Shown piece by piece: positions 8,885 through 62,311 of a stretch of DNA of 64,000 bases. Below the pieces are notes generated by a model. The model searched no databases and was not told where the DNA came from. It saw only the letters and a program-made list of their open reading frames with translations. Source of the DNA: Candidatus Latescibacterota bacterium (lineage in GTDB: Bacteria > Latescibacterota > UBA2968 > UBA8231); contig OZ252098.1 in the NCBI GenBank assembly GCA_965248355.1, forward strand, positions 1,792,001 to 1,856,000, written 5' to 3'. Positions within the stretch are counted from its first letter, which is position 1, and each line of letters opens with the position of its first letter. A program made the position numbers and the translations under genes.

Positions 8885-9661
8885 CTAGGAGCTCTCCGGG
8901 TTCGGAGCCGCCGACCGGCTCAGGACGCGGGCCCCGGCGCCGATCCCCACGGCCACGAGGGCGAGACTGAACAGCTGCGCGCCGGTCAGACCCAGCAGAA
9001 CCGGCGGATTGAGACGGATCGTCTCCACCCCGAACCGGGCGCCCCCGGCGAGCAGGAGATAGGCGCAGAACAGCAGGCCGGGCCGGCCTTCCACGGCCCT
9101 GCGCATGCGCCAGAGAAGGCCGAAGGTGGCCAGCCCCAGCAGGGTCTCGTAGACCGGCGCCGGATGGACGATCTCCTCCGTGGGCACCACCCCCTTCGGA
9201 TAGGCCATGCCCCACGGCAGGTCGGTGGGCACGCCGTAGTCGCCGTCGCCCGCCAACTGGCAGCCGATGCGGCCGATGGCGTACCCCAGGGCCAGTCCCA
9301 TGCCGATGGCGTCCGCCGTGGCCGGAAGCGGCGCCGCGTGGCGGCGGATCGTCCAGATCACCGCGGCCGTGGCCACGAGAAAGCCCCCGTGCCAGGTGAG
9401 TCCGCTGCCCGAGAACACGGCCCGCAAAGTCTCGCCCCAGGTGGCCCCATCGGGTATCTCGAAGAGGACGAAGTAGAGCTTCGCCCCGGCCAGGCCGCCG
9501 AGGATGGCGGCGGTGATCAGGCTCGTGGACAGCTCGGCATCGATGCCGCGACGGCGCAGCTCGCTCTTGATGACCACGTGCGCCGACAGGAACCCGAGCA
9601 CGACCATGGGGCCGAAGGTGGGCAGGCGGAAACCGCCGATCTCGAGCCAGTACGGATACAC
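8885..9661 (-). CDS. lgt: Prolipoprotein diacylglyceryl transferase
   Basis: GLTWHGG, GRIGC..GDGDYG, HPAPVYE, RFGVETIR; multiple TM helices. Confidence 0.85.
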   Translation of the reverse strand: MYPYWLEIGGFRLPTFGPMVVLGFLSAHVVIKSELRRRGIDAELSTSLITAAILGGLAGAKLYFVLFEIPDGATWGETLRAVFSGSGLTWHGGFLVATAAVIWTIRRHAAPLPATADAIGMGLALGYAIGRIGCQLAGDGDYGVPTDLPWGMAYPKGVVPTEEIVHPAPVYETLLGLATFGLLWRMRRAVEGRPGLLFCAYLLLAGGARFGVETIRLNPPVLLGLTGAQLFSLALVAVGIGAGARVLSRSAAPNPESS

Positions 9662-9663
9662 GT

Positions 9664-12600
9664 TCAGTCCACGGCGGACGGCGCCGGCCCTCGGTCCGGG
9701 GTGGCGCCGGAGTCAGCGGATCCCGGACCGAGCTCGACGATGCTCCGGCGCACGGACTCGGCGATCTCGCGGTAGACTTCGTAGGGGGTCAGGCGTTCCA
9801 GCAGGGACCGGAAAGAGCCGGGCTCGACGGCGCCGCCGAGGCGCACGCGGGCGTGGCGGGGACTGCTGGAGAGATCGCCTTCGCTGGCGGACAGATCGAC
9901 GCGGACGGGAATCACCGGCAGGTCCAGCTCCAGGGCCAGCAGTCCGATCCCCGGCTTGCAGGCACCCACGGAGGAGGGCCGGGGCGCTCCCTCCGGAAAC
10001 AGCAGCAGGGGCCGCCGCCGGCCGATGCGGCTCACCGCCTCCTCCAGGGCTCGCGGCAGGCTCTCCTGCCCGGACAGGGTCACCAGCTCGGCGAACCAGC
10101 GGCACAGCCTCGACTCCCAGCGGCCGCCGATGGTGTCCTGCCGCTCCACGAACAGGCAGAGCCCGTCCAGGTCCGGCCGCAACGCCGCGTAGATGGCGGC
10201 CGCCGCCGCCGGACCCGGGCGGCTGGCGGCCAGCAGGAAGGGTCCGCCGGGCAGATCCTCGGTGCCTTCGACCTCTACCCGGAGCGAGGCCCGCAACACC
10301 CTGGCGGCGGCGGTACCCAGGGCCGATCGCCCCCTCGGCGCCTCGGGTCCAGCGCCGCCGAGGAGCGAGGACCAGTAGCTCTTCGCCTCGGGTTCCTCCA
10401 GGGTCAACCCGGGATCCACCTCGTCGAGGAGCCGGCGCAGGGTGGTCCGCCGGCGGTCGATGGTGGGCGGCTTTGCGCCGGCCTCCTCGAGACAGGCGGC
10501 CAGCTCGACCGCCATGAGCGAGTCGATCAGCGTGTCCAGGGGAGCGTCGGCATGGGCGACGATCTCACCGACGGCCAGTCCCGACAGCCGGCTGAGCCGG
10601 TGGTAGACCTGCCGCTCCCAGGGGGCCAGGCTGTCGGCGGCGTCCACCTCCTCCGGGGCTCCCCGCTCGAGATCCTCGCGCAAAGCGCTACGATCGACGC
10701 GGCCGTCGTCGAGCCGCGGCAGGGGCCGGCGCTGGATGTGCAGCCGGGCGATCCGCTGCCAGCTGGGCAGGTCGCGCGACAAGGTGTAGGCCCGTTGCCG
10801 GATGCGCTCCTCCGTCTCTTGCAGGTCGAGCTCCCGGGCCCGGTGGTCGAGAACGGCGACCCCGTGCACCTCCTCTCCGAGAGTGCGGGCCGAGGGCAGG
10901 CCGACGACGGCCAGCTCGGCCGTGTGCGGCAGGCCGCTGTAGAGCTCTTCCACCTCGTCGGGATAGACGTTCTTGCCGCCGCCGGTGACGATCAGGTCGC
11001 GCCGCCGCCCGGTGATGAACAAGTAGCCGTCCTCGTCGACGTGCCCCACGTCGCCGGTGTGCAGCCAGCCGTCCCTCAGGACCTCGGCGGTCAGGTCCGG
11101 CCGGTTCAGGTATCCCGCGGTCACCGAAAGGCCGGAGACCAGGATCTCGCCGTCGTGGCCGAGGGGCGCGTCGATGCGCAGCTCGACGCAGGGCAGGGCG
11201 ACGCCCACGGATCCACGGCGGGCTCCACCCGGGGGATTGACGGTGACGATGGGCGAGGTCTCGGTCAGTCCGTATCCCTCGTAGACCGTGAGGCCCAGAT
11301 CGCGGTAGGTGTCGAACAGCGCTTCGCCGAGGGGCGCGCCACCGGAGACGATCAGGCGCAGTTGCCGCAGCACCTCGATGGGAGCCTGCGCTCCGTCCGT
11401 TCTCGTATCCAGACGCTGCACCCGGTCCGCCAGGATCTTGAGGATCCGCGGCACGGCGAGAATGGCCGTGATGCCGCGGTCCCGGATGGTCTCGAGGATG
11501 TTGCGGCTGTTGAGGGGGCCGTCGAGGTAGATGGTCGAGGCTCCGCCCCACAGGGACATGAGCAGGGCACCGGTGAACTCGAGTCCATGGTGCAACGGCA
11601 GGAGCGACAGGATGCGGTCGCTGTCGTGCACGCGCTGCACCTCCCCCAGCGCCAGCAGGTCGGAGATCAGGTTGCGGTGGGTGAGGATCACCCCCCTTGG
11701 GTCGACGCGGGTGCCGGAGGTGAAGATGATGGACGCCTCCCGGTCCTGGGAGATCTCCGGCTCCTGGAAGGTGGACCCGGCCATCTCCGCCGCCGCATCC
11801 ACCGGGGCGCCCGAGGCCAGGTCGATCCTGGTCCGCCCCGCGGCCGGGGCGATGCGGTCCAGGACGTCGGCGCCGGCCACGATCGCCCGGGCTCCGGCAA
11901 AGGCGGCCAGCCGCTCCACCTCCTCCCCCGGCGTCTGCGGGTCCAGGGGCACCACGGCGGCGCCGAGGAAGGAGCAGGCCATGTAGGAGATGACCCATTC
12001 GGGGCCGTTCTCGCCGGCCAGCAGGGCCCGATGGCCCGCGCCGAGGCCGAGCCCCTGCCAGCGGGCGGCTCGTTCCTCCACCCGCTGCAGCAGCTCGGCG
12101 TAGGTGATCCGGTGCCAGCGGCCTTCGGGGCGGGCCTCGAAGGCGACGCGCCCGGCGTGGCGGGCGCAGGCCCAGCGCAGCAGATCGGGCAGCGTGGAGA
12201 TCTCCCGCTCCGCCCGCAGCCGCTCCTCCTCGACACCCGGCTCCTCGGGCGCCTCCGGCAGCACCGCCTCCGGAGCCGCCTCCTCGCGCAGCACGTGGCG
12301 CCGCAGACCGGGCAGGTGGATATCGGCCACGTACTCGCGCCAGTCGATCCCGGTCACGTCCATTTCGAAGCAGGCGCGCTCCTGGGGGGGCAGCGACTCG
12401 TACAGCTTGCGCGTGCGGCCCGTCTCGAAGCGGCAATCGAGATGGGTGTACGGGTGATAGATGTCCACGTAGTAGAGCACGCGCTGCAGCCGGACCTTGG
12501 CCGTCCCGAGGAGCCGCCGCTTCCGCGGCGGCGGCGAACGGCCGGGCAGGTCGAGGAGCCTCTCCCGGAGCTGGATGGGCCCGAGATGCCGCAGTCGAAA

Positions 12601-13875
12601 GAGGATCCGGAACAGGCGCAGGCTCGGGTAGCGCCAATCGGGCAGCGGCGGCCTTCGACCGTCGCGGTCCGGCATGGGTGTGCGCATGTAGTGAGCGCGC
12701 ACGCTGTCGAACAGCCGGCCCAGGCGCACCGGGTTCTCGGTGCCCGTGGCCACCTGGAAGACCTCCACCGAATCCGGCCGCGCCCGCACCGCGGCGGCGA
12801 GGGTGGCGTTCACCACCCGGTCCACCGGGATCAGGTCGAGGATGATGTCCGGCCGCGCGGGAAAGTCCGGCACCAGGCCCCGTCCGTAGGCGACGATCAG
12901 AGGGTCCATCACCTTCAGCCCCGTGATCCAGCCCGGTTCCGGATCGGCGAGGCTGCTCTCGATGATGCTGGGACGAACGACCACCAGGGGTACGTCGCCG
13001 CGCCGCAGGGTGAGCATCTGCTCGCCCATGGCCTTCGTATAGGTGTAGACGTCGTTCCACCCATGCTCGCGGGCCCGTCGCATGCCCTCCGCCACCAGGC
13101 GCCTCCGGACCCAGCGCGCCCGGCGATCCTCGACGAGCTGCTCGAGACGGGTGCTCGTCAGCTTGCGGCTCCCGGGGCGCCCGTACTCGCGTACCACCTC
13201 CCGTTTCAGGCGCCGGGTGAAGTCCTCCTCGGCGGCCTCTTCCCGGATGCGCCGGCAGGCCGCCCGGCAGTCGGCCACCTCGCTCACGGGATCGAAGCCG
13301 GGGCCGTCGCCGTCGATGACCTGGCGCATGTCCCGGTCGACGGGCAAGGGCTCGTCGGGAATCGTTCCCTGGCGCTGACCGTTCACGTAGGCGGTGGAGA
13401 CGTGCACGAAGTCGACGCGCCGCTTCGTGGCCCCGGCCAGCTCCATCAGGGCCAGCGGCCCCCCGACGTTGGCCTGGACCGACACGTCCAGGGGCTCGTC
13501 GAAGACGACGGTTGCGGCGCTGTTGAAGATCGTGTCGACCTCGGCCGACAGTCGCTGCCGATCCTCGGAGGACAGTCCCAGATCGGCCTGACGCTCGTCG
13601 ATGGCCACCGGGAGCACCTTCTCTCGAAGGCGCTCCCACCGGCCGGGGTCGGCCTCCGCCAGGCGCTGAAAGAGAGCCGTCTGGTACAAATCCTGCAGAC
13701 GCTCGTCGGGGGAGACTTCCCGGCCATCGGCTCGCCGGCGGGGACGGATCATCAGGTAGACGCGGCGGACCTCCTCCCCGAGGTCGCGCAGGATCTTGGC
13801 CAGCAGCGCCTGGCCGACGAAACCCGTACTCCCGGTGATCAGCAGACTTCGGTCTGTGTAGTACTCACGGATCAT
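9664..13875 (-). CDS. Multidomain fatty acyl-CoA reductase / acyl-CoA synthetase / ACP / acyltransferase-like protein (ElbD-like architecture)
   Basis: Reductase: TGSTGFVG, HVSTAYV, YTYTK, RPSII. Adenylation: FTSGT, YGLTET, LHTGD, GKNVYPDEVE. ACP: LIDSLMAVEL. PlsC-like: FPEG, LPVIPV. Confidence 0.85.
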   Translation of the reverse strand: MIREYYTDRSLLITGSTGFVGQALLAKILRDLGEEVRRVYLMIRPRRRADGREVSPDERLQDLYQTALFQRLAEADPGRWERLREKVLPVAIDERQADLGLSSEDRQRLSAEVDTIFNSAATVVFDEPLDVSVQANVGGPLALMELAGATKRRVDFVHVSTAYVNGQRQGTIPDEPLPVDRDMRQVIDGDGPGFDPVSEVADCRAACRRIREEAAEEDFTRRLKREVVREYGRPGSRKLTSTRLEQLVEDRRARWVRRRLVAEGMRRAREHGWNDVYTYTKAMGEQMLTLRRGDVPLVVVRPSIIESSLADPEPGWITGLKVMDPLIVAYGRGLVPDFPARPDIILDLIPVDRVVNATLAAAVRARPDSVEVFQVATGTENPVRLGRLFDSVRAHYMRTPMPDRDGRRPPLPDWRYPSLRLFRILFRLRHLGPIQLRERLLDLPGRSPPPRKRRLLGTAKVRLQRVLYYVDIYHPYTHLDCRFETGRTRKLYESLPPQERACFEMDVTGIDWREYVADIHLPGLRRHVLREEAAPEAVLPEAPEEPGVEEERLRAEREISTLPDLLRWACARHAGRVAFEARPEGRWHRITYAELLQRVEERAARWQGLGLGAGHRALLAGENGPEWVISYMACSFLGAAVVPLDPQTPGEEVERLAAFAGARAIVAGADVLDRIAPAAGRTRIDLASGAPVDAAAEMAGSTFQEPEISQDREASIIFTSGTRVDPRGVILTHRNLISDLLALGEVQRVHDSDRILSLLPLHHGLEFTGALLMSLWGGASTIYLDGPLNSRNILETIRDRGITAILAVPRILKILADRVQRLDTRTDGAQAPIEVLRQLRLIVSGGAPLGEALFDTYRDLGLTVYEGYGLTETSPIVTVNPPGGARRGSVGVALPCVELRIDAPLGHDGEILVSGLSVTAGYLNRPDLTAEVLRDGWLHTGDVGHVDEDGYLFITGRRRDLIVTGGGKNVYPDEVEELYSGLPHTAELAVVGLPSARTLGEEVHGVAVLDHRARELDLQETEERIRQRAYTLSRDLPSWQRIARLHIQRRPLPRLDDGRVDRSALREDLERGAPEEVDAADSLAPWERQVYHRLSRLSGLAVGEIVAHADAPLDTLIDSLMAVELAACLEEAGAKPPTIDRRRTTLRRLLDEVDPGLTLEEPEAKSYWSSLLGGAGPEAPRGRSALGTAAARVLRASLRVEVEGTEDLPGGPFLLAASRPGPAAAAAIYAALRPDLDGLCLFVERQDTIGGRWESRLCRWFAELVTLSGQESLPRALEEAVSRIGRRRPLLLFPEGAPRPSSVGACKPGIGLLALELDLPVIPVRVDLSASEGDLSSSPRHARVRLGGAVEPGSFRSLLERLTPYEVYREIAESVRRSIVELGPGSADSGATPDRGPAPSAVD

Positions 13876-14225
13876 CGACGTGGAGGGAACCGGAGGTGGG
13901 AGGGGAGGAAGGACGTAACTCTCCGCCGAATCCGTATGTTATCGACACGGATCAGGCCTGACAAGGAGGCGCGCGGCGTCAGGAGACCGGCGGCGGCGGG
14001 GCCTCGTCCTCCTTGCAGCCACCCTCGTCCTCCGGCCTGCGGCGCGGCTCCTGACGGGTGATGTAGGGATGCCGCACCTGCTGACGCAGGGCCTCGCGAT
14101 CCGGCCCGCAGCGATCCCCCGCCCGGGAGCGTCCTTTCGGTTCATCCTTCATGTACTCAAGTGTACGTCGTTGCCCTTGGAGATGAAATCACCCCGGCGG
14201 ACGACCCCCGCCCGATGAGATCCCG

Positions 14226-15125
14226 ATGATCGACGGACCCTGGACCCTGATCGCCAATCCCGCGGCGGGAGGCGGGCGCGGCCGCAGGGTGGCCGAGCAC
14301 GGCCGGCGCCGCCTGCGGCAGGCCGGGCTGGACGTCACCCTGGCCTGGACCCAAGGGCGCGGACAGGCGCGGGAGCTGGCCGCCGCCGCCATCGCCCGGG
14401 GCTGCCCGGTGGTCGTCGTCTGCGGCGGGGACGGCACCGTGGCGGAGGTGCTGCCGGAGCTGGCCGGCCAGGGCACGAGCCTCGGCCTCCTGCCCGCCGG
14501 GACCTGCAACGACCTGGCCCGCGCCCTCGGCGTCCCCAGGTCCGCGGAGCCGGCGGTGCGGGTTCTCGTCGAGGGCCGGCCCCGGCCGATCGATCTGGGC
14601 CGCTGCGGGCAGGCCTGGTTCGCCACCATCGCCTCCTTCGGCTTCGACGCGGAGGTGGGCGGGGCGATGGCGGCGGGGCTCGCGCCGTTCTCCGGAACGG
14701 CCGGTTACCTCTACACCGCTCTCCGCCATCTGCGCAGGTACCGCCCGCCCAGGGTGCGGGTCCGGGGTGACTTCGGCGTACTGGAGCGGGAGGTCTTCCT
14801 CGCGGCCACGGCCAACACCAGCTCCTACGGTGGAGGCATGCGCATCTGCCCGGAGGCCGACCCGACGGACGGAAGGCTCGACCTCTGCCTGGTCGACGGC
14901 AGCGTCTCTCCGCGCGTGGTGCTCGCCATGCTTCCCAGGATCTTCCGGGGCGGCCACGTGCGCTCCCCGGCGGTGCGCATGCTGCGCTCCTCCTGGGTGG
15001 AGATCGAGCCCCTCGACGGCGGGCCCATGTCCCTGCGCGCCGACGGCGAGCGCCTGGCCGACGCGCCGGCGGTGCTGCATGTCGAACCCCAGGCACTGAG
15101 GGTCATTCAGCCGGCCTCTCCATAG
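14226..15125 (+). CDS. Diacylglycerol kinase family (YegS/DAGK-like) lipid kinase
   Basis: NPAAG, GGDGT, PAGTCNDLA, YGGG, DGE. Confidence 0.9.
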   Translation: MIDGPWTLIANPAAGGGRGRRVAEHGRRRLRQAGLDVTLAWTQGRGQARELAAAAIARGCPVVVVCGGDGTVAEVLPELAGQGTSLGLLPAGTCNDLARALGVPRSAEPAVRVLVEGRPRPIDLGRCGQAWFATIASFGFDAEVGGAMAAGLAPFSGTAGYLYTALRHLRRYRPPRVRVRGDFGVLEREVFLAATANTSSYGGGMRICPEADPTDGRLDLCLVDGSVSPRVVLAMLPRIFRGGHVRSPAVRMLRSSWVEIEPLDGGPMSLRADGERLADAPAVLHVEPQALRVIQPASP

Positions 15126-15257
15126 GGGCCGCGGGTCCCATCTTCAGGGCCGGACCGAGGCCGGCGGTGGCGGATCTGCGGCCGATGTTGCATATTGCGC
15201 ATGCCGCCCCCCCACTGGCGGACTCCTCCCTGACCCATCCCCGCGACCCCCCGACCC

Positions 15258-16229
15258 ATGGCCACCAGGGCACAAAGAGTCCGTCTCGCCGTCTTTCTCA
15301 TGTTCTCCATCAGCGTTCTCGGCGGCTTCCTCGTCGTCGTGGCGGGATCCCAGTTGCTGCGCCAGCGGCTGACCTACTACATCGAGTTCGCGGAGTCCGT
15401 GGGCGGCCTGTCCGCCGGCGATCCCGTCAAGTACCAGGGCATCACCGTGGGCCGCGTGGATGACACGCGCGTGTCCGGCGACGAGATCGGCGTCGTTCTC
15501 GTGGAGATCTCCCTGGAGGCCCGCAAGGTGCCCAACCTGATCCGCACCGACACCCAGGCGCGGCTCTACAGCCAGGGCGTGACCGGGCTGAAGTACATCG
15601 AGCTGAGCTCCGGATCCCCCGACGCGCCGCTCCTCGAGCCGGGTCAGGTCCTGCCGGCGCGGGCGACCTTCCTGTCGAACATGGAGGAACGAGCGGAGGT
15701 GCTCATGGTGCGCATCGAGGCCCTGCTGACCAACCTGACGGCGATGACGGCGGAGCAGAACCAGCACCGCCTGGGCCGGATGATCGAGGCCGGCTCGGAG
15801 TTGATGGAGAACACCAACGCCCTGCTCACCGACCGGAGGGGCGACCTGGGCGAGACGATCACCAACCTGGCCCGGGTCACCGACAACCTGGCGGCCACCA
15901 CCGCCTCCATGCGCGCCGCCATGGACTCCATCCGGGTCCTGACCTCCGCCGAGGAGACGCGTGCGGCCCTGCGCGATCTCAGCCGGTCGATCCGCGTCCT
16001 GCGCGAGCACCTCGAAGGACCGGTGCCCGAGCTGCTGGCCAGCCTGCAGCAGATGACGGGGAAGATCGACGCCACCGTCACCCACGTGGACCGGACCGTG
16101 CTGCAGAGCCGCAAGAACATCCTCGACGCCATGCAGAGCCTGGAGGAGACGCTGCTCAACGTGCGCCAGGCCACGGAGCTGATCCGCGAGAATCCCGCCG
16201 TGCTGCTTCGCGGAAGGACGGACCCGTGA
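15258..16229 (+). CDS. MCE/MlaD family protein
   Basis: N-terminal TM, SVGGLSAGDPVKYQGITVGRV, GLKYIEL, long helical tail. Confidence 0.88.
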   Translation: MATRAQRVRLAVFLMFSISVLGGFLVVVAGSQLLRQRLTYYIEFAESVGGLSAGDPVKYQGITVGRVDDTRVSGDEIGVVLVEISLEARKVPNLIRTDTQARLYSQGVTGLKYIELSSGSPDAPLLEPGQVLPARATFLSNMEERAEVLMVRIEALLTNLTAMTAEQNQHRLGRMIEAGSELMENTNALLTDRRGDLGETITNLARVTDNLAATTASMRAAMDSIRVLTSAEETRAALRDLSRSIRVLREHLEGPVPELLASLQQMTGKIDATVTHVDRTVLQSRKNILDAMQSLEETLLNVRQATELIRENPAVLLRGRTDP

Positions 16230-17020
16230 CCCCCGGGAACCGGGGCCTGGCGGTGGCGGCCCTGCTGGTCCTGCTGGCGGCCTCCGGGTGCTCGAGTCTC
16301 ATCGCGGGCAAGGCCGAGGTCCGCGAGCGCCGCAAGTTCATCATCGAGGGCCAGTCCCAGCGCCTGAATCTGCCGTTGTCGGAACGTCCCTACGAGCTCA
16401 GGGTCCAGATCGAGCGCTTCGCCATCTCCAAGTTCTACGAGCGCGATCAGATCGTCTACCGCCTGTCCCCGGAGGAGATCCGGGACGACCGCTACAACCT
16501 CTGGGCCGTCCGTCCGAGCGAGATGATCACCAACGCCGTCGCCGATTACCTCCGGTCGGCGAACCTGTTCACCGACCTGCGTCCGGACTTCCTCGACGTA
16601 ACCCCGGAACTCACCCTCACCGGGACGATCGACGCCTTCGAGCGCTTCGACTCCGGGGACCGCTGGTGGGCCCGGCTCGACGGCACCCTGCAACTGGTGG
16701 ACGGCGAGGGCAGGATCTTCTGGCAGCACCGGTTCGCGCCGAGCGAGGTGGAGGTCTTCGAGGCGGACATGGCCTTCACCGTCCAGGGAATGAACGAGAT
16801 CCTGCGCCGGAACATGATCGATGCGATCCGCTCTCTCGACCGGGCCCTGTTGATCCGCAAGGCCAGCGCCGAGGGACGCGACCTGACGGGCCTTCTGGAG
16901 GAGGAGGGCAACGGCGCCGCGCCGGTGTCCACCGAGGCGGAGGCGACGCCGGAGACCCCGCGCGAGACCGAGGACTACATCGTGGTGCCAGGGAAGCTGG
17001 CCCCGCAGGGGGGCCGGTGA
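16226..17020 (+). CDS. ABC transport auxiliary lipoprotein (PqiC-like)
   Basis: Lipobox-like LAASGC; IVYR...WAVRPSEMI; position directly after the MCE gene. Confidence 0.75.
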   Translation: MTPGNRGLAVAALLVLLAASGCSSLIAGKAEVRERRKFIIEGQSQRLNLPLSERPYELRVQIERFAISKFYERDQIVYRLSPEEIRDDRYNLWAVRPSEMITNAVADYLRSANLFTDLRPDFLDVTPELTLTGTIDAFERFDSGDRWWARLDGTLQLVDGEGRIFWQHRFAPSEVEVFEADMAFTVQGMNEILRRNMIDAIRSLDRALLIRKASAEGRDLTGLLEEEGNGAAPVSTEAEATPETPRETEDYIVVPGKLAPQGGR

Positions 17021-18531
17021 TGCGCGCCTTCCGGTCCGCCGCCCTCTTCCTCGCCCTCGCCACGGCCGCGGCGGCGGACGAGAGCAGCTGGTCGGCCGCT
17101 TCCCCTTTCGCCCAGCTGTCGCGCGACCCGACCTTGCTGCCCAAGGGAAAGGGGATGCTGTTCATCCCCACCATGACCCTGCCCATCGGCAACGAGCCCA
17201 AGTTCCAGGTCTTTCGGGACGGCCGGGAGGTGCGGTCCGCCTCCCCCGGCCGCGGGCTCCCCCTCGATCCCGGGCTGTACCAGGTCCGGTTCGGCTCCGG
17301 GAACCTCTCTCAGCTGATCCGCAAGAACGTGCCGATCTTCGAGGGCGAGACGACGATGCTGAAGCCGACCTGGTCGGCCCTCGTCATCGATGTCATCGAT
17401 CAGACCCGGACCTCGGTGAACGAGAGCTACGAGCTGTTCGACGAGAGCGGCGAGAGCCACGGGCCCGGCTTCGGCATCGAGGAGGAACGAGGGGAACGGG
17501 TACGCACCTGGATCCTGCGGCCCGGGGTGTACAGCGTCGTGCGTCTGGGCGACTCCTTCGCCACCATCGACAAGTTCAGCGTGCAACTGCTGCCGGGGAT
17601 CCCCACCCAGCGCAACCTCGTCTACAACAGCGAGGCCGGGGAATTCACCTCCTTCTACCAGCGTCCGCAGCTCCATGCCCTGGTCCCGCGCGCCACCTCC
17701 GCCGTCCTCTCCCAGACCGAGCTTTCCGGCTCCGTCCGCGTGAACACCTCGCAGAAGACGGTCGGCGACAATCTGACGAGCGCGAACCTCGCCCTGCAGC
17801 TCTTCAACCACACGCGCTACAACACGGATCGGCACTACGCCAGCCTCCGCGTCCTCATCGAACAGGGCGCCAGCTGGCAGGAGAGCCAGGAGCTGCAGAA
17901 GGGGGTCGATCGCGCCGAGAGCCGCGCCACTTACATCTACCGGCTCTCTCCCCGGATCGGTCCGTACCTGCGCGGCGTGATCCACTCGAACGTCTTCCCC
18001 TCGGAGACGCGCTTCCGGATGCCGCGCGACCTGATCCGGACGGCCAGCAACGGCCGCGTGGACACCCTCGAAGGGATCGCGCGTTTCACGACGGCCCCCT
18101 CGCTCTCGCCGATCACCTTCCGCGAGGGCATCGGCATCAACTCCCGGGTGTTCCGCTACTTCGCCCTCAACACCGACCTGCGTCTGGGCATCGGAGCGCT
18201 CCAGGAGTTGTACAAGGGCTTCTTCGACGTCAGGACGGACTCGGCGGCCACGAGGGCCATCGAGTTCAAGAGTTCCTCCACCACCGGCTTCGAAGCCCTC
18301 GTCATCCTGGACGCCCGTCTTTCGAGGTTGGTCAGCCTCGACTCCGAGTTCGACATCCTCATGAGCTCGCGGGACTCGAAGGAGTGGTTCTTCACCTGGG
18401 AGAACCGCTTGCGCATCGCCCTGACGAGCTTCATCAACCTCGACATCAACGCCAATCTCGAACGGACCCAGGGCCTGCGGCGGCTGGCCGCCCGCGAGCA
18501 GGTTCTGCTGCGCTTCTCCCGGTTCTTCTGA
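17020..18531 (+). CDS. Hypothetical exported protein, probable outer-membrane beta-barrel C-terminus
   Basis: TGATG coupling; signal peptide; alternating hydrophobic beta-strand pattern; ends LLRFSRFF. Confidence 0.6.
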   Translation: MRAFRSAALFLALATAAAADESSWSAASPFAQLSRDPTLLPKGKGMLFIPTMTLPIGNEPKFQVFRDGREVRSASPGRGLPLDPGLYQVRFGSGNLSQLIRKNVPIFEGETTMLKPTWSALVIDVIDQTRTSVNESYELFDESGESHGPGFGIEEERGERVRTWILRPGVYSVVRLGDSFATIDKFSVQLLPGIPTQRNLVYNSEAGEFTSFYQRPQLHALVPRATSAVLSQTELSGSVRVNTSQKTVGDNLTSANLALQLFNHTRYNTDRHYASLRVLIEQGASWQESQELQKGVDRAESRATYIYRLSPRIGPYLRGVIHSNVFPSETRFRMPRDLIRTASNGRVDTLEGIARFTTAPSLSPITFREGIGINSRVFRYFALNTDLRLGIGALQELYKGFFDVRTDSAATRAIEFKSSSTTGFEALVILDARLSRLVSLDSEFDILMSSRDSKEWFFTWENRLRIALTSFINLDINANLERTQGLRRLAAREQVLLRFSRFF

Positions 18532-18535
18532 CGAG

Positions 18536-19633
18536 GTGGACATCCAGCCCGATGCCGGCGGTCGCCTCCGCATCACCGGGGCGTGCACCGTGGACTCGGT
18601 GGCGGCGGGATCCCACCGGTTCCGGCTGCTCATCCGCGAGAGCCCGCAGGCCGAGCTGACCGCCGATCTGTCCGGGCTCACCCGCCTCGACACGGTGGGC
18701 GCCGTGTGGCTCCGGCGCCTGCCGGCCCTGGCGGCCGAGGACGGCCGTCGGCTGCGCCTGGGCGAGACCCCGGCCTCGATGCGGCCCCTGATCGCCAGCG
18801 TCGACAGGGACCCGGCGACGGCCGAGGGTGATGACTCGCGGGAGCGGACGGGATTCCTCGAGCGGGTCGGCGAAGGGGCCTTCCGCCATCTGCGGGCCTG
18901 CCTCGACTTCCTCTACCTGGCCTCCGACCTGACCTGGGCCGCGGGCACCGCCCTCTTCCGGCGCCGGGGGGTGCGGCGGGGCGACTTCGTCAGGCAGTCG
19001 GCCGTGATCGGCGCCGACGGTCTGCCCATCGTCGCCGTCATCCTCTTCCTGATCGGCGGCGTGTCGACCCTGCAGGCGGCGGTCCAGCTGCGCCGCTTCG
19101 GGGCCAACGTTCTGGTCGCCGATCTGCTGTCGATCGGCATCACCCGGGAGCTCGGACCGCTGATGACGGCGATCGTGATCGCCGGCCGCTCCGGGTCGGC
19201 CTTCGCCGCCGAGATCGCCTCGATGAAGTTCAACGAGGAGATCGACGCCCTGCGGACCATGGCCCTCGACCCGCTGCGGCTCGTGGCCGTGCCCAAGATG
19301 TGGGCCATGCTCCTCACCCTTCCCCTGCTGACGATCACGGCCGACTTCGTGGGTCTCGCGGGGGGCACGGTGACGGGCGTCTTCTCCCTCGACATCTCGG
19401 CCTCGGCCTTTGTCGGCCGCGTGCAGAGCGCGCTGTTGCTGAAGGACGTGCTCACCGGGCTGGTGAAGTCCCTTTCCTTCGCCTGGATCATCACCGTCGT
19501 CTCCGTGTACCGGGGCCTGCAGGCCCGGGGCGGGGCCGCCGGAGTCGGCGCGGCGACCACCTCCTCGGTGGTCTCGTCGATCTTCGCCATCATCGTCCTC
19601 GACCTGACCTGGGGCCTCGTCTTCTACCTGTGA
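18536..19633 (+). CDS. mlaE: MlaE family permease with N-terminal STAS-like domain
   Basis: DLSGLTRLDTVG (STAS); RELGPLMTAIVIAGRSGSAFAAEI, EEIDAL, VGAATTSSVV. Confidence 0.88.
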   Translation: MDIQPDAGGRLRITGACTVDSVAAGSHRFRLLIRESPQAELTADLSGLTRLDTVGAVWLRRLPALAAEDGRRLRLGETPASMRPLIASVDRDPATAEGDDSRERTGFLERVGEGAFRHLRACLDFLYLASDLTWAAGTALFRRRGVRRGDFVRQSAVIGADGLPIVAVILFLIGGVSTLQAAVQLRRFGANVLVADLLSIGITRELGPLMTAIVIAGRSGSAFAAEIASMKFNEEIDALRTMALDPLRLVAVPKMWAMLLTLPLLTITADFVGLAGGTVTGVFSLDISASAFVGRVQSALLLKDVLTGLVKSLSFAWIITVVSVYRGLQARGGAAGVGAATTSSVVSSIFAIIVLDLTWGLVFYL

Positions 19634-20409
19634 CCGATCGTCCAACCACCCGGAACCACCCGGACGGCGAGGCCGTCGTCGAGGTCCGGGACCTGCAGGT
19701 GGCCTACGGTGAGGAGGCGGCACCGGTCCTCGACGGCGTCGACCTCGAGGTCCGCCGGGGCGACATGACCTGCATCGTCGGCGGCTCGGGGTGCGGGAAG
19801 AGCACGCTGCTGAAGACGGTGATCGGCCTCGTCTCCCCTCGTTCCGGCGACCTGAGCCTGCTGGGGGAGCCCCTTCACGAGCTGGCCGAGCCCGAACGCG
19901 ACGCCCTCCTGATGCGGGTGGGGGTGATGTTCCAGTACGGGGCCATGCTCGGCTCTCTGACGGTGGCGGACAACGTGGGCCTGCCCCTGCAGATGCACAC
20001 CGACCTGGAGCCGGATCTGATCGACGACATCATCGATACCCGTCTGCAGCTCGTCGGCCTGGCCGGGAGCGGGGACAAGCTGCCCAGCGAGCTGTCGGGC
20101 GGCATGCGCAAGCGCGCCGCCCTGGCCAGGGCCATGGCCCTGGAGCCGGAGGTCCTGTTCTGTGACGAGCCGGGCGCCGGCCTGGACCCGGTGACCGCCG
20201 CCGGCATCGACCACCTCCTTCTGTCCGTGAACCAGGGGCAGGGAACGACGGTCGTCGTCGTCACCCACGAGTTGCTGAGCATCGAGCGGCTCGACGGCAA
20301 TCTCGTCATGCTCGACTCGGGGCAGGTGGTCTTCGACGGCACGGTGCGCGCCGCCCGGGAGCAGGACCGCGAGGACCTGCGGCGGTTCTTCAACCCGTCG
20401 CAGGCATGA
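19630..20409 (+). CDS. mlaF: MlaF family ABC ATPase
   Basis: GGSGCGKS, LSGGMRKRAALARA, CDEP.AGLDP, VTH. Confidence 0.88.
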   Translation: MTDRPTTRNHPDGEAVVEVRDLQVAYGEEAAPVLDGVDLEVRRGDMTCIVGGSGCGKSTLLKTVIGLVSPRSGDLSLLGEPLHELAEPERDALLMRVGVMFQYGAMLGSLTVADNVGLPLQMHTDLEPDLIDDIIDTRLQLVGLAGSGDKLPSELSGGMRKRAALARAMALEPEVLFCDEPGAGLDPVTAAGIDHLLLSVNQGQGTTVVVVTHELLSIERLDGNLVMLDSGQVVFDGTVRAAREQDREDLRRFFNPSQA

Positions 20410-20882
20410 AGATCTGCCTCATCGCCGCGGTCTCGCCCGATCTGGTGATCGGCCGCGAGGGCGGTCTGCCCTGGCATTATCCGGCGGACATGCGGCACTT
20501 CATGCGCACCACCTTCGGCCATCCCTGTCTCATGGGGAGGCGAACCTACGAGTCCATGCCGCGGAGGCCGCTTCCCGGACGCCCCAACCTGGTGCTGACC
20601 CGCAACCCCGACTTCGCCGCCGCCGCGGGGATGCAGCCCTTCCACGATCTGGAGGCCGCCCTCGACCACTGCCGCCAGGCCGGCCGGTCCCGGGTCTACG
20701 TGTGCGGAGGGGCGAGCGTCTACGCCGAGGCCCTGCCGCTGGCCCGGGAGATGATCCTGACCCACGTGCCGGATCGAGTCGAGGGAGACACCCGCTTCCC
20801 GGAATGGCCGGACCGGGAGTGGACGGTCACAGGGGAGAGCCGCGAGGGGCCGCTGCGTTTCGTCACCTACCGGCGCAGGTGA
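20406..20882 (+). CDS. folA: Dihydrofolate reductase
   Basis: IG..GGLPW..PADM, MGRRTYES, LPGRPN, GG..VY, GDTRFP. Confidence 0.92.
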   Translation: MKICLIAAVSPDLVIGREGGLPWHYPADMRHFMRTTFGHPCLMGRRTYESMPRRPLPGRPNLVLTRNPDFAAAAGMQPFHDLEAALDHCRQAGRSRVYVCGGASVYAEALPLAREMILTHVPDRVEGDTRFPEWPDREWTVTGESREGPLRFVTYRRR

Positions 20883-20910: not shown

Positions 20911-22044
20911 TCAGAACACGGACAGCTCCCGCAACCGGGCCACGATTCCCGGCAGGAGCTCGAGCACGCGGTCGATCTCGGCCTCGTCGTTGCCCCATCC
21001 CAGGCTGAAGCGCAGCGCCCCGGCGGCCAGTCGCGGCTCCACGCCCATGGCGAGCAGGACGTGGGACGGATCCGCCGCCCCCTCGGCGCACGCCGACCCG
21101 CTCGAGGCGCAGATCCCCTCCAGGTCGAGGCCGACCAGAACCGCCTCGGCCTCGACGCCGCGGAAGGAGAGGTTGAGGGTGTTGCTCAACCGGTGCGCAG
21201 GGTCTCCGTGGACGGCGACCTCCTCGACGCGCTCCCGCAGACCCGCCTCCAGTCGGTCCCGCAAGCACGCCTCGCGCCGCCCCTGATCGACCATCTCCGC
21301 CCGCCGGATCCCGGCGGCGGCGCCGAACCCGACGATGGCCGCCACGTTCTCGGTGCCGGCGCGCAGCCCGTGCTCGTGGCCTCCTCCGACCTGCCAGGGC
21401 TCCAGGGCCGTGCCCCGGCGCACGTACAGGGCGCCCGCCCCCTTGGGACCGTTGATCTTGTGTGCTGAGAGAGAGACCAGGTCGGCGTTCAGGTCATCGA
21501 CCCGGGTGGGGATCTTGCCGAAGGCCTGCACGGCGTCCACGTGGAAGGGCACGCCGCGGTCGCGCAGGACGGCGCCGATCTCGGAGACCGGCTGGATCGT
21601 CCCGGTCTCGTTGTTGGCCAGGATGAGGGAGACGATCGCCGCGCCCTCGGCCGCGGCGAGAACCCGTTCCGGATCGACCCGGCCCGCTTCGTCCACCGGG
21701 AGGAGGACGACCTCGCGGCCGGCCCGGGCCAGCTCCCCGGCTGCGTGGAGGACGGCGTGGTGCTCGACGGCGGAGACGACGACACGGCCGCTGGAGAGCG
21801 CCGCCGTGCCTCGGAGGGCCCAGTTGTCGGCCTCCGTTCCGCCGCTGGTGAAGTGGACCTCCTCCGGATCGCAGCCGAGCAGTCCGGCGATCTGACAGCG
21901 TCCGCCCTCGACGGCCTCCCGCGCCCTCCGTCCGGGCCCGTGCCGGCTTGAGGGATTGCCGAACTCCCCCGTGAGGTACGGCCACATGGCCTCCCGGACC
22001 TCTGGCCGCACCGGGGTCGTGGCATTGTGGTCGAGGTAGATCAC
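20911..22044 (-). CDS. iscS: Cysteine desulfurase (IscS/NifS group I)
   Basis: YLDHNATT, NNETG, HVDAVQ, SAHKINGPKG, SSGSAC. Confidence 0.88.
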   Translation of the reverse strand: MIYLDHNATTPVRPEVREAMWPYLTGEFGNPSSRHGPGRRAREAVEGGRCQIAGLLGCDPEEVHFTSGGTEADNWALRGTAALSSGRVVVSAVEHHAVLHAAGELARAGREVVLLPVDEAGRVDPERVLAAAEGAAIVSLILANNETGTIQPVSEIGAVLRDRGVPFHVDAVQAFGKIPTRVDDLNADLVSLSAHKINGPKGAGALYVRRGTALEPWQVGGGHEHGLRAGTENVAAIVGFGAAAGIRRAEMVDQGRREACLRDRLEAGLRERVEEVAVHGDPAHRLSNTLNLSFRGVEAEAVLVGLDLEGICASSGSACAEGAADPSHVLLAMGVEPRLAAGALRFSLGWGNDEAEIDRVLELLPGIVARLRELSVF

Positions 22045-23186
22045 CGGTAACGGACCAGGGCGCTGTAGGCGCGGGCGATGAAGGTGCCCCGCAGGCGCTC
22101 GCCGCGGCTGTCGAAGGTGGTGCCGTCCTCGTACACGAAGCGCTCCTCCTCGCCGGGTTCCACGCCGTCGGCGCCGCGGCTGACCACGACGGAGTCGGCG
22201 GCGCTCACGGTGTGCTGCAGCAGGCGGGCGACGGCGGCGTCCACCAGGTCGAGGCCGCGGAACCGCTCCAGCCGCCCCTCGGACTGCAGCTGGTCAAGCT
22301 CCTCCCAGAGGGAGCTCCGGTCCTCCTCGATGCGCGGCGCCGCCAGGAAATAGAGGGTGTAGACCCGGTCGTCCTCGGAGAGGGCCTGCCAGCTGTTCTC
22401 GCCTGGGGCGTAGTACCATCTTCCCCCGTAGGTCGTCTCGTCCACCAGGGTCTGCCTCGAGCCGTCGGAGTTCAGCAGGAAGGCGAAGACCTCGCAGTCC
22501 CTCCGGGCCCGGTAGCGCAGCTGGATCCGGTCCGCCACGGCCAGTCTCCCCCCCTCCTCGAAGTCGATCCTCTCCGGGAACCCCCCCTCGTCCCGCCGCA
22601 CCAGGAGGTGCAGGTCGATCTCCAGCGGTCTCGTCACCTCGGCGGCGACGCCGGTCTGTCGGCGCTGGCGATCGCGGATCAGGCGCGCCAGCTCGACCTC
22701 GGAGATTCGCGTCCCGTGGTCCTGGCGCACTCGGCCGGTAAGTGGATCTGCGAGGACCAGGCGCAGATAGGCCCAGGACCCCTCGATGCGCAGCTGGCCG
22801 CCGGCCACCAGGTCTCCGGGCAGCTCTCTCCAGTCGTCGGGCAGGGACGACTCGCCGGCCCAGTCGAGGTCCTCCGCCAGAGCCGAGCCGGCGATGCCGG
22901 CGTCGGGCTGGGCCACCACTCCGGCGCGCATCGCAGCCGACAGCAGCACCTCGTCGAGAGCCTCGGTCTCGGCGGAGGTGGTCCCGTCGGCGTGCCGGAA
23001 ACCGGCGATGGTGACCGTGCGGCCCTGGTGGGGCCACTCGGAGAGGAGCCTCTCGAGGGAGGCCTCCGCACCCTCTCCCCGGGACCCGTTCCATCCCGGG
23101 AGCCCGCAGCCGAGGGACAGGACCGACGCCGAGAGCACCAGCCGCCCGGCGCGCCGCCAGATCTCCCCGGCCCTTGCCGATCTCAC
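22041..23186 (-). CDS. Hypothetical lipoprotein (possible DUF4384-like C-terminal domain)
   Basis: Lipobox-like LSLGC; DRIQLRYRARRDCEVFAFLLNSDG segment. Confidence 0.5.
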   Translation of the reverse strand: MRSARAGEIWRRAGRLVLSASVLSLGCGLPGWNGSRGEGAEASLERLLSEWPHQGRTVTIAGFRHADGTTSAETEALDEVLLSAAMRAGVVAQPDAGIAGSALAEDLDWAGESSLPDDWRELPGDLVAGGQLRIEGSWAYLRLVLADPLTGRVRQDHGTRISEVELARLIRDRQRRQTGVAAEVTRPLEIDLHLLVRRDEGGFPERIDFEEGGRLAVADRIQLRYRARRDCEVFAFLLNSDGSRQTLVDETTYGGRWYYAPGENSWQALSEDDRVYTLYFLAAPRIEEDRSSLWEELDQLQSEGRLERFRGLDLVDAAVARLLQHTVSAADSVVVSRGADGVEPGEEERFVYEDGTTFDSRGERLRGTFIARAYSALVRYR

Positions 23187-31290: not shown

Positions 31291-31615
31291 CCGATGGATC
31301 CGCCGGGCAAAGACTGGTCACAAGCAACTCATGAATCCTGTGGGACGTGACTCCCCTGGCGGATGCCTGCCGCTGGATACCCCTTCATGAGTCTGGTCCG
31401 GCCAGACCGGGGTCCTCGAGCAGGGCCGGCTGGTCGATCCACGGCCTCGGCCGAGAGAGCAGGACCACCGGCAGAACCGCTCCTGCACCAGGACCGTGGC
31501 CCTTGGCCTGATTTTGGAATGCCATCGCATGGGACCACATTCTACAGCCCGATCTCACGCGTGGCTCCGTTCCACAACAAGACACTTCCGAATCGACTCA
31601 GAAAGGACCCAAGAG

Positions 31616-34600
31616 ATGTCGAATAGCAGCGGATTCATCAGAAGGATGATCCCATTGGGATTGTGCACGTTCCTGTGGGCAGGTTCGCCGGCTACGGCCC
31701 AGACAGAGAGTTCCGGGGCGGTAGCGGGCCGGGCCGAGCGTACGCCTGTGTCCGTCACCGGAGTAGGCGCCGAGATCAATTCCGAAGGAACGAGCGTCAC
31801 CGTCTCCTGGGAGCTCTCGGAGTCCGACAGGGTGACCAGCGTGCCGGTCGGCGGTGACCTTACTGCAGGTGGCGCCTTTGTGGGGGTCAATGGTGTCGAT
31901 GACTACAACATCTGGCGCCAGGGAGCCGAGGACACCGAGCCGACTTTGGTAGGCACCGTCAATGCTGGCGAGACCTCCTTTGTCGATGAATCGTTCGCTC
32001 TGGGGACGACCTACACCTATTCGGTCACCGCCACGGCGCCCGCCGGCGACAATGAGAGTGCCCCAACCGCGGCCGACACACCGATCGATGTCGGCCCGCC
32101 ACCTGCGGTTACGCTGACAGTCGACCAAGCCAGCCTGGGTGAGGGGGACGGTGTTGCGACGGTCACGGTGACGGCAACGCTGAGCAGGACATGGTCCCTC
32201 AACACCCCGGTGGAATTGTCGATCTCGGATGCGGGTACGGCCGAACAGGCGGAAGGCCGCGACTACACGGCGGAATGGACGGGCCAGCTCACCATCGCTG
32301 CCGGCGAATCGGAGGGCAGCGCGACCCTGTTGGTGTCCGTCAACGACGACAATCTGGCCGAGGGAGACATTGCCGAAACCATTCTACTCGAAGGGACCTC
32401 CGCCGTATCAGGTGGCGCCAACGAGACGGCGGACCTGGACGTGGCGGGGACCGAGATCACCCTGACGGACAACGATGTGGCCCCCACGTCGATCACCCTG
32501 ACGGTGGACACGGCCAACCTGGACGAGGGGGCCGGCGAGACGGCGGTAGAGGTGACGGCCACCCTGGGCGACGGCAGCACGGCCCTGCTCACCGATACCG
32601 CCGTGGCCCTGTCCCTCTCAGGCACCCATGTGGACTTGGGGCCTGACTACGAGGCTTCCGAGGTCACCATCACCATTCCGGCCGAGCAAACCGGTGCCAG
32701 CTCGACTCTGACACTCACGCCGAACGACGACAACTTGGCCGAAGGCGACGAAACCATCGAAGTGTCGGGTGCGGCCGACGGGTTCACCGTGGAGTCCGCC
32801 TCGATCGGTCTGACCGACAACGACGTGGCGCCCACCTCCATCACCCTGGAGGTCGACGCCAGCACCTTCGGTGAAGGCGACGGCGACGCGACTATCACCG
32901 TAACCGCTACCCTGGGCGACGGCAGCACCGCCCTGTTGAACGACACCGAGGTCGCCCTCGCAGTGGCCGAAAGCGACGAGAATGCCGCCGCTGCCGGCGC
33001 CGTGACCATCGCCGCACGAGAAACCTCCGCCAGCGGATCGATCACCCTGACGATCCTCGAGGAAAACCTCGTCGACGGCGACAAGACCATCGCCCTGGTG
33101 GGAACCGCCGCCGGCTACGACATCGGGGACATCGAACTGACCGTCACCGACAACGACGTGGCGCCCACCTCCATCACCCTGGAGGTCGACGCCAGCACCT
33201 TCGGTGAAGGCGACGGCGACGCGACTATCACCGTAACCGCTACCCTGGGCGACGGCAGCACCGCCCTGTTGAACGACACCGAGGTCGCCCTCGCAGTGGC
33301 CGAAAGCGACGAGAATGCCGCCGCTGCCGGCGCCGTGACCATCGCCGCACGAGAAACCTCCGCCAGCGGATCGATCACCCTGACGATCCTCGAGGAAAAC
33401 CTCGTCGACGGCGACAAGACCATCGCCCTCACCGGTACCGCCGCCGGCTATGACATCGGTGTCGTCGAGCTGACCGTCACCGACAACGACGTGCCGCCCA
33501 TCATCACGCTGGCGGTGGACAACAGCACCTTTGGTGAAGGCGACGGCGAAGCGACCCTGACCGTGACCGCCACCCTCAGCGACGGCAGCACCGCCCTGTT
33601 GAACGACACCGAGGTCGCTCTGGCCGTGGCCGAAAGCGACGAGAACGCCGCCGCGGCCGCCGCCGTGACCATCGCCGCCGGCGAGACCTCCGCCAGCGGA
33701 GCCCTGACGCTCACGCTCCTCGACGAGAACCTCGTCGACGGCGACAAGACCATCGCTCTCACCGGTACCGCCGCCGGCTATGACATCGGTGTCGTCGAGC
33801 TGACCGTCACCGACAACGACGTGGCCCCCACCACGATCACCCTGGAGGTCGACGCCAGCACCTTCGGCGAAGGCGACGGCGAGGCGACTATCACCGTAAC
33901 CGCTACACTGGGCGACGGCAGCACCGCCCTGTTGAACGACACCGAGGTCGCCCTGGCCGTGGCCGAAAGCGACGAGAACGCCGCCGCGGCCGCCGCCGTG
34001 ACCATCGCCGCCGGCGAGACCTCCGCCAGCGGAGCCCTGGCGCTCACGCTCCTCGACGAGAACCTCGTCGACGGCGACAAGACCATCGCCCTCACCGGTA
34101 CCGCCGCCGGCTATGACATCGGTGTCGTCGAGCTGACCGTCACCGACAACGACGTGCCGCCCATCATCACGCTGGCGGTGGACAACAGCACCTTTGGTGA
34201 AGGCGACGGCGAAGCGACCCTGACCGTGACCGCCACCCTCGGCGACGGCAGCACCGCCCTGTTGAACGACACCGAGGTCGCTCTGGCCGTGGCCGAAAGC
34301 GACGAGAACGCCGCCGCGGCCGCCGCCGTGACCATCGCCGCCGGCGAGACCTCCGCCAGCGGAGCCCTGACGCTCACGCTCCTCGACGAGAACCTCGTCG
34401 ACGGCGACAAGATCATCCTGCTCACCGGTACCGCCGGCGGGTTTGACATAGGTGTCGTCGAGCTGACCGTCACCGACAACGACGTGGCCCCCACCACGAT
34501 CACCCTGGAGGTCGTCGCCAGCACCTTCGGCGAAGGCGACGGCGAGGCGACTATCACCGTAACCGCTACACTGGGCGACGGCAGCACCGCCCTGTTGAAC

Positions 34601-61333: not shown

Positions 61334-61351
61334 AGGAATTGGCCATCATCC

Positions 61352-62155
61352 TCAATTGGTTGATTTCTTGATGTTGCCCCAAGTGGAACTGCTCACATCC
61401 GAGGACTTCTGGTGCCGATTCTCGGCATCCCAATGATCGACGGTCCTAAAAACTGCTGTCGAATCCGATACGGCACCTCTTGCTCCTCCTCCATCGGACT
61501 CAACCCGAAGAGTTGCCCGCATGCCATACAACTGATGGAGGGCGGCTGTCGTATCTCCGTGGTACACTTCGTCCATGCACCAGTCCATCCCGTAGCCGGC
61601 CAGGAAGCGGATCTGCCTGAGATGGGACCTCCGTGGCGATGCCGCCAGGTAGTCGTCCAGTCCACTGTATCCTGTATACCTGAAGATCCTTATGGGGGGA
61701 AAACCGAACTTGTCCTCAATGTCGAGAAATTCCACTTGCGTATCCCCCTCGGTCTCCGGAATCGTGTACGTGCCGCCCCCAGGCGTGTCGAATCTGTACA
61801 GGGAAATCTCGCCCGTGCCCGTGTGCTCCATGAGATGATCCCCGTTCCACCGCACTTTCTTGCCAGTAATGCAATGAGGCGGGTTTGGGGTCGGACCCGG
61901 CATCGAACTGAACACATAGTAAGTGAGGCCGTCGATCACCTCTGTGCGTTCGATCGAGATCGTGATCTCCCGTGGGCTACCATCCCCATCGTTGAGGCCC
62001 AGCAGCCCATATTCGTCGTGCGAGGAGTTCTTGTAGACCCAGGAATTGCCGACAGCCAAGGGCAGAAACTCAAACGTCTCGTACGTGACCTGCGCCCTGG
62101 CCGATGCCAGGCACAGGGAGGAGATTCCAACGAACAGCAGGATGCGTGGCAGCAT
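61352..62155 (-). CDS. Secreted hypothetical protein with C-terminal TWGNIK motif
   Basis: Signal peptide ...SARA-Q; FLPLAVGNSWVY; ends SSSTWGNIKKSTN; GAGGAG RBS. Confidence 0.7.
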   Translation of the reverse strand: MLPRILLFVGISSLCLASARAQVTYETFEFLPLAVGNSWVYKNSSHDEYGLLGLNDGDGSPREITISIERTEVIDGLTYYVFSSMPGPTPNPPHCITGKKVRWNGDHLMEHTGTGEISLYRFDTPGGGTYTIPETEGDTQVEFLDIEDKFGFPPIRIFRYTGYSGLDDYLAASPRRSHLRQIRFLAGYGMDWCMDEVYHGDTTAALHQLYGMRATLRVESDGGGARGAVSDSTAVFRTVDHWDAENRHQKSSDVSSSTWGNIKKSTN

Positions 62156-62311
62156 GAGGGTACTCCTCGGTTATGCCCATCTGGCGTTTGCGGATGGGCC
62201 TGCACGGCATGGATGCGCGGGAGGCTCTTGGACGGCCGAGGCCCCGCTAGGCATCGAACTGAAGACGTAGTAGGTCTTGCCACCGATCACCTCGGTGGTG
62301 TCGATGGAAAT

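Follow-up and report, generated by a model that had tools for sequence, protein, structure and literature searches.

A 64,000 bp window of a Candidatus Latescibacterota genome (G000:C1:1792001-1856000; the source genome is one contig, 95.7% complete) encodes a 1403-amino-acid (aa) fusion protein that resembles ElbD, and this protein probably acts as a fatty acyl reductase (FAR) only, whose alcohol product would feed an AGPS ether-lipid pathway encoded by genes dispersed elsewhere in the genome. The locus is real and conserved in the bacterial family to which the window belongs, and it is not a self-contained module. A preliminary description of the window had proposed that it makes alkylglycerols by itself, and this was not borne out: catalytic motifs of the fusion are lost, the genes that would form the ether lie about 1.0 and 1.3 Mb from the fusion locus, and orthologues of elbB, elbC and elbE were not found in the window's genome (no elbB match at all, and for elbC and elbE only matches of 23-30% identity with E-values of 1e-9 or weaker). 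The ether-lipid context that it proposed did hold up. Our class sample comprises all 132 genomes returned by a class search, from the window's family and three other families; below, G numbers are genomes, C numbers contigs, L numbers extracted loci, and g13 and g20 genera.

The fusion gene (9664..13875, minus strand) was assigned from Pfam domains, motifs and full-length homology. Its reductase part (residues 1-535; 12271..13875, minus strand) matches NAD_binding_4 at residues 13-358 (E-value 2e-60) and Sterile at 464-531, and its TGxTGFxG (TGSTGFVG) and YxxxK (Tyr277-x3-Lys281) motifs are intact, as they are in 18 of 18 aligned proteins. The adenylation-like domain (10651..12195, minus strand; AMP-binding at 567-923, 9e-72) retains motifs A5, A7 and A8 and lacks both lysines, with Arg727 in the A3 P-loop (TSGTRVDPRG) and Arg1059 at A10 (PRLDDGRVDR). 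The remainder (9667..10635, minus strand) consists of a carrier domain, which has no Pfam PP-binding match although a DSL motif with Ser1119 is present, and a decayed PlsC-like domain (a weak Acyltransferase match at 1238-1326, 8e-5, under the cut-off) that keeps FPEG and has Arg1219 and Ala1224 in place of the His and Asp of HX4D, a motif with an established role in PlsC-type enzymes. Two of the four catalytic domains are without key residues, a feature missed in the preliminary description. A frameshift or assembly artefact as the source of these losses was ruled out, since the gene is one open frame and the same changes are present in nine genomes of the genus.

The domain order FAR-ACS-ACP-acyltransferase and the full-length similarity to a myxobacterial protein of an elbB-C-D-E cluster (29% over 1486 columns, E-value 3e-147) bear out the reductase-adenylation-ACP-acyltransferase fusion as first described. 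Its match to ElbD stands for the four-domain order, the reductase motifs and the carrier serine, and falls for the adenylation lysines and HX4D. Myxobacterial and Pyrinomonadaceae proteins from elbB-C-D-E clusters, which served as stand-ins for the M. xanthus sequence in all comparisons to ElbD, have PKG in 12 of 12, the A10 lysine in 11 of 11 and HX4D in 11 of 11 cases; the motif-keeping proteins come from Myxococcales, Polyangiaceae, Bradymonadaceae, Pyrinomonadaceae and similar loci, mostly with the order HAD-LarN-ElbD-epimerase. Among the closest homologues of the window's protein, the A3 lysine is arginine in 107 of 107 (the query included), the A10 lysine is kept in one of the 105 that cover the site, and HX4D is gone in 21 of 98 full-length sequences, the 15 closest among them. 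The acyltransferase domain of the window's genus has drifted (33% identity to other genera, compared with 42% among those), and three genomes (G026, G028 and G030) have a separate adenylation gene with intact motifs upstream of the reductase. Judged by two catalytic motifs and by its operon content, the fusion is a variant of ElbD and not a member.

The reductase is present in 128 of the 132 genomes, at one locus each. The fused form (open frame over 1000 aa) is found in 54 genomes, all of the window's family (five of these frames are 1077-1237 aa long), and the stand-alone form in 18 genomes of that family and in all 56 of the other three families, a count that includes a few reductase genes cut by contig ends. 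In a quick-version tree of 48 sequences, which gave long-branch warnings, the class reductases form one clade (SH-aLRT 90) among fused outgroups, separate from the myxobacterial-type ElbD, and the stand-alone forms fall at about six separate places within the window's family, which is most simply read as a tail lost repeatedly. The adenylation-carrier-acyltransferase tail is likely to be left over from an ancestral ElbD and to have been discarded in several lineages.

Where would a fatty alcohol made by such a reductase go? The window's genome encodes a full-length AGPS (G000:C1:816769-818616, plus strand; E-value 3e-151 to guinea-pig AGPS, 4bby) with its His-rich active-site motif SHHHGVGK, followed by a short-chain dehydrogenase/reductase (SDR) gene; the pair (G000:C1:816769-819475, plus strand; to 819478 as locus L145:6770-9479) is nearly class-wide. 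A 649-aa acyltransferase with a PlsC/GPAT fold and HX4D is encoded at G000:C1:3144567-3146513 (plus strand; to 3146516 as locus L146:6568-8517). AGPS was found in 123, the SDR in 118 and acyltransferases of the 649-aa type in 130 of the 132 genomes. In the other families these genes are operon-linked: the acyltransferase gene (~650 aa) stands after the reductase in 55 of 56 genomes, 48 of the 52 that have both reductase and AGPS have them no more than 8 kb apart (three have AGPS on another contig and one far away), and the run reads reductase, ~650-aa protein, AGPS, SDR and often kinase. In the order of steps of the AGPS pathway, the 649-aa protein would acylate dihydroxyacetone phosphate (DHAP), AGPS would swap the acyl group for the fatty alcohol from the ElbD-derived reductase and so form the ether, and the SDR adjoining AGPS would yield 1-O-alkylglycerol-3-phosphate; the kinase adjacent to the fusion (below) may salvage alkylglycerol or diacylglycerol. 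These activities, substrates and products are read from the genes, their motifs, copy numbers and neighbourhoods. The plasmalogen desaturase CarF/PEDS1 (PF10520) was found in none of five genomes, and no control genome was positive either.

The structure model of the 649-aa protein (pTM 0.85) has a helical N-terminal part of ~400 residues and a C-terminal PlsC/GPAT fold that aligns with PlsC 5kym (Z 13.7, rmsd 3.1, 214 residues) and GPAT1 (Z 10.2); the best Foldseek match has an E-value of 4.9e-3, and a profile search against PDB sequences gave no match at an E-value of 1, nor does the protein match any Pfam domain. His449 is invariant and Asp454 is present in at least 90% of 21 sequences. An Atlas match to PF01553 at 0.91 involves only about 100 shared features and is a lead only. 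The family search gave 155 clusters; among the best 120 the named taxa are Latescibacterota, Gemmatimonadota and unclassified bacterium metagenome-assembled genomes (MAGs), and none of those 120 has a Pfam domain on record. The 649-aa protein is a candidate DHAP acyltransferase.

Several points weigh against a reductase-only ElbD relative that supplies AGPS. The adenylation-like domain is conserved between genera about as well as the reductase (about 54-55% and 53-54%, respectively) and is therefore not simply decaying. Both lysines are likewise missing from the outgroup fusion L065, which nevertheless stands beside elbB-type genes; their loss therefore does not mark the AGPS route. The reductase tree is the quick one described above. 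The DHAP acceptor proposed for the 649-aa acyltransferase is a prediction from fold and motif, two other PF01553 acyltransferases are encoded in the window's genome, and the acyltransferase is also present in six genomes without AGPS. Loss of the P-loop lysine alone costs one ligase only 4-fold, according to the part of PMC8388817 that also names the A10 lysine as the key catalytic lysine of adenylation domains. For M. xanthus ElbD, PMC9131029 reports that fatty alcohol went undetected and that the proposed product is an aldehyde, and the Pontiella case in PMC11868695 indicates that elbD homologues need not mean ether lipids.

Could the tail still work in a changed way, the adenylation-like domain having given up activation of free fatty acid and instead binding acyl-CoA, or loading acyl groups onto the carrier serine for the reductase, or acting as a regulator, with the AGPS route unchanged? 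Its even conservation, the retained A5, A7 and A8 motifs and carrier serine, two phosphopantetheinyl transferases in the window's genome and the HX4D kept in 77 of the 98 full-length homologues would all fit such a role, but the tail is absent in 74 of the 128 genomes with the reductase, the carrier DSL is replaced by NSL or NSM in four members of the genus, and the missing PP-binding match sets the carrier region apart from the canonical proteins. We consider a working tail unlikely. A further possibility is that the aldehydes or alcohols made by the reductase go into wax esters, storage lipids or surface lipids and have nothing to do with AGPS. In its favour, FAR-family enzymes serve wax synthesis in other organisms and the product linked to M. 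xanthus ElbD is an aldehyde; against it, the other families link the reductase gene in operons with those for the acyltransferase, AGPS and SDR, which makes it very improbable. Wax synthase (PF03007) was found in none of five genomes, and again no control genome was positive.

The reductase-only reading ties the ether step to AGPS, and nine genomes have no AGPS match. Three of them are G104 (75% complete), G067 (82%) and G038 (91%, its contig ending at the acyltransferase gene); the other six (G131-G134, G030 and G026) are 84-96% complete, none of the best quality class. An ElbC-like LarA_N protein together with a zinc dehydrogenase is present in exactly these six, and the ElbC-like gene was found in none of the 123 AGPS-bearing genomes. 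The SDR was found in none of the six and a close elbB-type HAD in all of them, as well as in G028 (16 further weak HAD matches, with E-values of 1e-20 to 1e-24, were treated as paralogues). The loci with elbB-type HAD, zinc dehydrogenase and ElbC-like genes are L048:2534-12717 (G030), L047 (G026) and L161-L164 (G131-G134); in G028 a divergent AGPS and an SDR follow the acyltransferase gene, at the position that HAD, dehydrogenase and ElbC occupy in G026 and G030. The outgroup elbD genomes have ElbC-like genes in five of five cases and a full AGPS in none of five, one of these genomes being only 2.4 Mb. Because the six ElbC genomes amount to two or three independent lineages, no statistic is claimed, and a strict substitution is opposed by M. 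xanthus, which has both routes according to PMC9131029. LarC, for nickel insertion, is present in five of five ElbC genomes and in five of five others, and so permits but does not favour a LarA-like role. Taken as a pattern of gene content, these data point to the LarA-like ElbC as a candidate alternative ether-forming enzyme; a literature search on elbC with ether and on lactate racemase with ether lipid yielded no such proposal (Lorenzen 2014 lies outside it).

As a separate observation, divergent AGPS copies (G021:C4:36362-38056, G028:C96:7968-9671 and G012:C428:10195-11892) have 42-48% identity, compared with at least 59% for the class type; two of the cases are in close relatives of ElbC-bearing genomes, possibly by re-acquisition.

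Around the fusion, the preliminary description saw a coupled module that makes alkylglycerols or fatty alcohols, phosphorylates them and exports them through its own Mce system. The genes on which it drew are all there: lgt, for prolipoprotein diacylglyceryl transferase (8885..9661, minus strand), 2 bp beyond the fusion as claimed (stop at 9664, start at 9661), and, divergent from these, a DAGK-family kinase, mce, a PqiC-like lipoprotein, a barrel-like protein, mlaE and mlaF. Several neighbourhoods favour such a module. Directly after the reductase lies lgt in 21 of 23 family genomes examined, no more than 8 kb separate the barrel gene from the reductase in 58 of the 69 family genomes with both, and in four g13 genomes elbB-dehydrogenase-elbC heads the run kinase-mce-pqiC-barrel-mlaE-mlaF (continuous in three, on two contigs in one). 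LpxC, the only lipid A gene searched, was found in none of the 132 genomes with controls positive, so the outer membrane would need other lipids. But no ether-forming gene is at the locus; the unrelated ilvD, rpiA, OYE, folA and iscS belong to the same conserved order around the reductase in the window's family; and the other families keep the ether genes, yet have lgt after the reductase at none of 16 loci, the barrel gene in none of 56 genomes and MlaD near the reductase in none of 47 genomes among the matches listed (13 matches are unlisted). The kinase, moreover, was not found at an E-value of 1e-30 in 30 of the 132 genomes. We regard a coupled module as quite improbable.

The lgt gene (PF01790 over the cut-off; 95 bits for NCBIfam TIGR00544, whose cut-off is 118.9) is the housekeeping copy, linked to the reductase only in the window's family; a second, lipid-specific lgt or a second Mce system was ruled out by their single copies in the genome. 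If ether phosphatidylglycerol exists, the sole Lgt could attach alkyl-acyl-glyceryl anchors to lipoproteins, a speculation prompted by the tight coupling of lgt to the reductase gene in this family. The YegS/DAGK-family lipid kinase (14226..15125, plus strand) is a candidate alkylglycerol or diacylglycerol kinase. Its link to the reductase, already part of the first account, recurs across phyla: the two are near each other in 49 of 61 family genomes with both, in 26 of 39 in other families and at five outgroup loci (L065, L066, L067, L070 and L075), and kinases near elbD have been noted in bioRxiv 10.64898/2026.06.23.733905. In g20, however, no kinase was found at an E-value of 1e-30 in 15 of 15 genomes, all of which retain the reductase, the acyltransferase, AGPS and the SDR, and the kinase is therefore not required for the route.

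The operon that follows encodes an Mce protein with one MlaD domain and a long C-terminal extension (15258..16229), the PqiC-like lipoprotein (16226..17020; ABC_trans_aux, with a lipobox-like LAASGC), a predicted 503-aa outer-membrane beta-barrel with two N-terminal beta-sandwich regions in its model (17020..18531), an MlaE permease with an N-terminal STAS domain (18536..19633; STAS-MlaE) and an MlaF-type ABC ATPase identified by domain match (19630..20409), all on the plus strand. The run continues past mlaF, which had been missed, into folA (dihydrofolate reductase; 20406..20882, plus strand), a single-copy non-lipid gene that overlaps the mlaF stop. MlaE, MlaF, a single-domain MCE protein and a PqiC-like lipoprotein in one operon are the hallmarks of a Mla-Pqi chimeric system. 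The 503-aa protein has no Pfam match at an E-value of 0.1; its model (pLDDT 78.7, pTM 0.51) shows a C-terminal barrel of about 16 strands and matches outer-membrane barrels (FapF, E-value 6e-7). Among its Atlas look-alikes, 11-12% of members have DUF481 or DUF3078, and a PqiC-like domain is found together with DUF481 in one Atlas cluster at 0.87; both are leads only. The barrel gene is present in 72 of the 132 genomes, namely the window's and 71 of 75 other family members. An MlaD-domain gene is present in 126 of the 132, and the window's genome has just the one. Dedicated ether-lipid trafficking is accordingly weak as a claim, with the Mce operon and lgt as sole copies and with the reductase-MlaD distances given above; the operon encodes the cell's only Mce transporter, which probably moves envelope lipids generally, ether lipids among them. 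LpxC was not found class-wide, though an Mce system and a predicted outer-membrane barrel are both encoded in the window's genome.

Extended to the whole class, a broader scheme can be put forward tentatively, as possible rather than probable. This LpxC-less class would have ether-lipid membranes made with an ElbD-derived reductase and a new acyltransferase, with either AGPS and SDR or ElbC and zinc dehydrogenase as back end; ElbC would be a flavin-free ether-bond synthase, ElbD would never form the ether, and the Mce-PqiC-barrel system would deliver to a lipid-A-free outer membrane. If this is true, ElbC, a relative of the nickel-pincer enzyme LarA, would be the catalyst still to be assigned in the bacterial elb pathway, in which ether-bond formation is described as unresolved (PMC9131029).

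Those homologues of the fusion that bear a taxon name, with 42-53% identity, come from MAGs labelled Ca. Latescibacterota, Ca. Handelsmanbacteria or Gemmatimonadota, and the host is accordingly no myxobacterium, as had been suspected; in one locus with Ca. Latescibacterota in its title, the fusion (46% identity) adjoins the same kinase and barrel, and a pattern-based genome scan gave one Latescibacterota locus among the 80 matches listed. Four metatranscriptome runs of one study contain contigs mostly 95-99% alike, covering 28-30 of 30 bins at low depth, with the intergenic stretch covered too; they reveal neither transcription nor operon structure and were rejected as expression evidence. Elsewhere in the window, a 381-aa protein with a lipobox-like N-terminus (22041-23186, minus strand) has no Pfam match at an E-value of 0.1 and adjoins the Mce run in many family genomes, a 2007-aa open reading frame (31496-37519, plus strand) lies within a lower-GC stretch (65-67%), and at 60001-64000 the GC content falls from about 71% to 58-64%, possibly an acquired segment.

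The value of the locus is its comparative result. The class naturally dissects ElbD, in that the reductase stays, the other parts are either disarmed or deleted and the ether step goes with AGPS or ElbC, and this AGPS/ElbC pattern names specific proteins for reconstituting that step. It also carries a warning: elbD matches used to predict sponge or marine ether-lipid producers can be partly dead enzymes on another route. The unannotated 649-aa-type acyltransferase family is a likely candidate for the missing DHAP acyltransferase.

How does this compare with known systems? With M. xanthus ElbD and elbA-E, as presented in PMC9131029, the fusion shares its domain order and the kinase that is often nearby; it differs in the motifs and elb genes that it lacks and in its separate reductase clade. 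AGPS, reductase, HX4D acyltransferase and SDR, which co-occur in nearly all class genomes, are shared with the eukaryotic FAR1-GNPAT-AGPS pathway and the M. xanthus MXAN_1676-1674 operon (described in parts of PMC9131029 and PMC13012113, the main text of the latter making no mention of Latescibacterota). In contrast to these, the class reductase is ElbD-derived and not a FAR-GNPAT fusion, the acyltransferase is of a 650-aa family with a helical N-terminal part, and the genes are dispersed in the window's family. The occurrence of elbD and agps homologues in Latescibacterota is already published: of 92 MAGs, 50 have elbD and 67 have agps (PMC11868695), and sponge Latescibacterota have agps alongside a stand-alone elbD (bioRxiv 10.64898/2026.06.23.733905). 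Those two reports and PMC9426513, in the sections that treat sponge and marine elb-like clusters, describe diacylglycerol kinases, transporters and split elbD beside elbD; the motif losses, the novel acyltransferase and the AGPS/ElbC exclusion are not found in those sections. The best solved relatives of the ElbC-like protein (E-value 2e-46) are the one-histidine LarA homologues LarA_Sp and LarA_Bw (PDB 9q2u and 9q3j; PMC12611868), with matching positions for His115, Lys195 and His211 in the alignment; those proteins are linked to carbohydrate metabolism in the account of PMC12611868, and their ElbC-like counterpart is in AGPS-less relatives and not in the window's genome. Finally, P. aeruginosa PA3211-PA3214 and Brucella Mpc, as outlined in PMC13631591 and PMC12436622, share with the window's operon the permease, the ATPase, a single-MCE-domain protein with a long extension and the PqiC-like lipoprotein, to which the window's operon adds an outer-membrane barrel gene between pqiC and mlaE.

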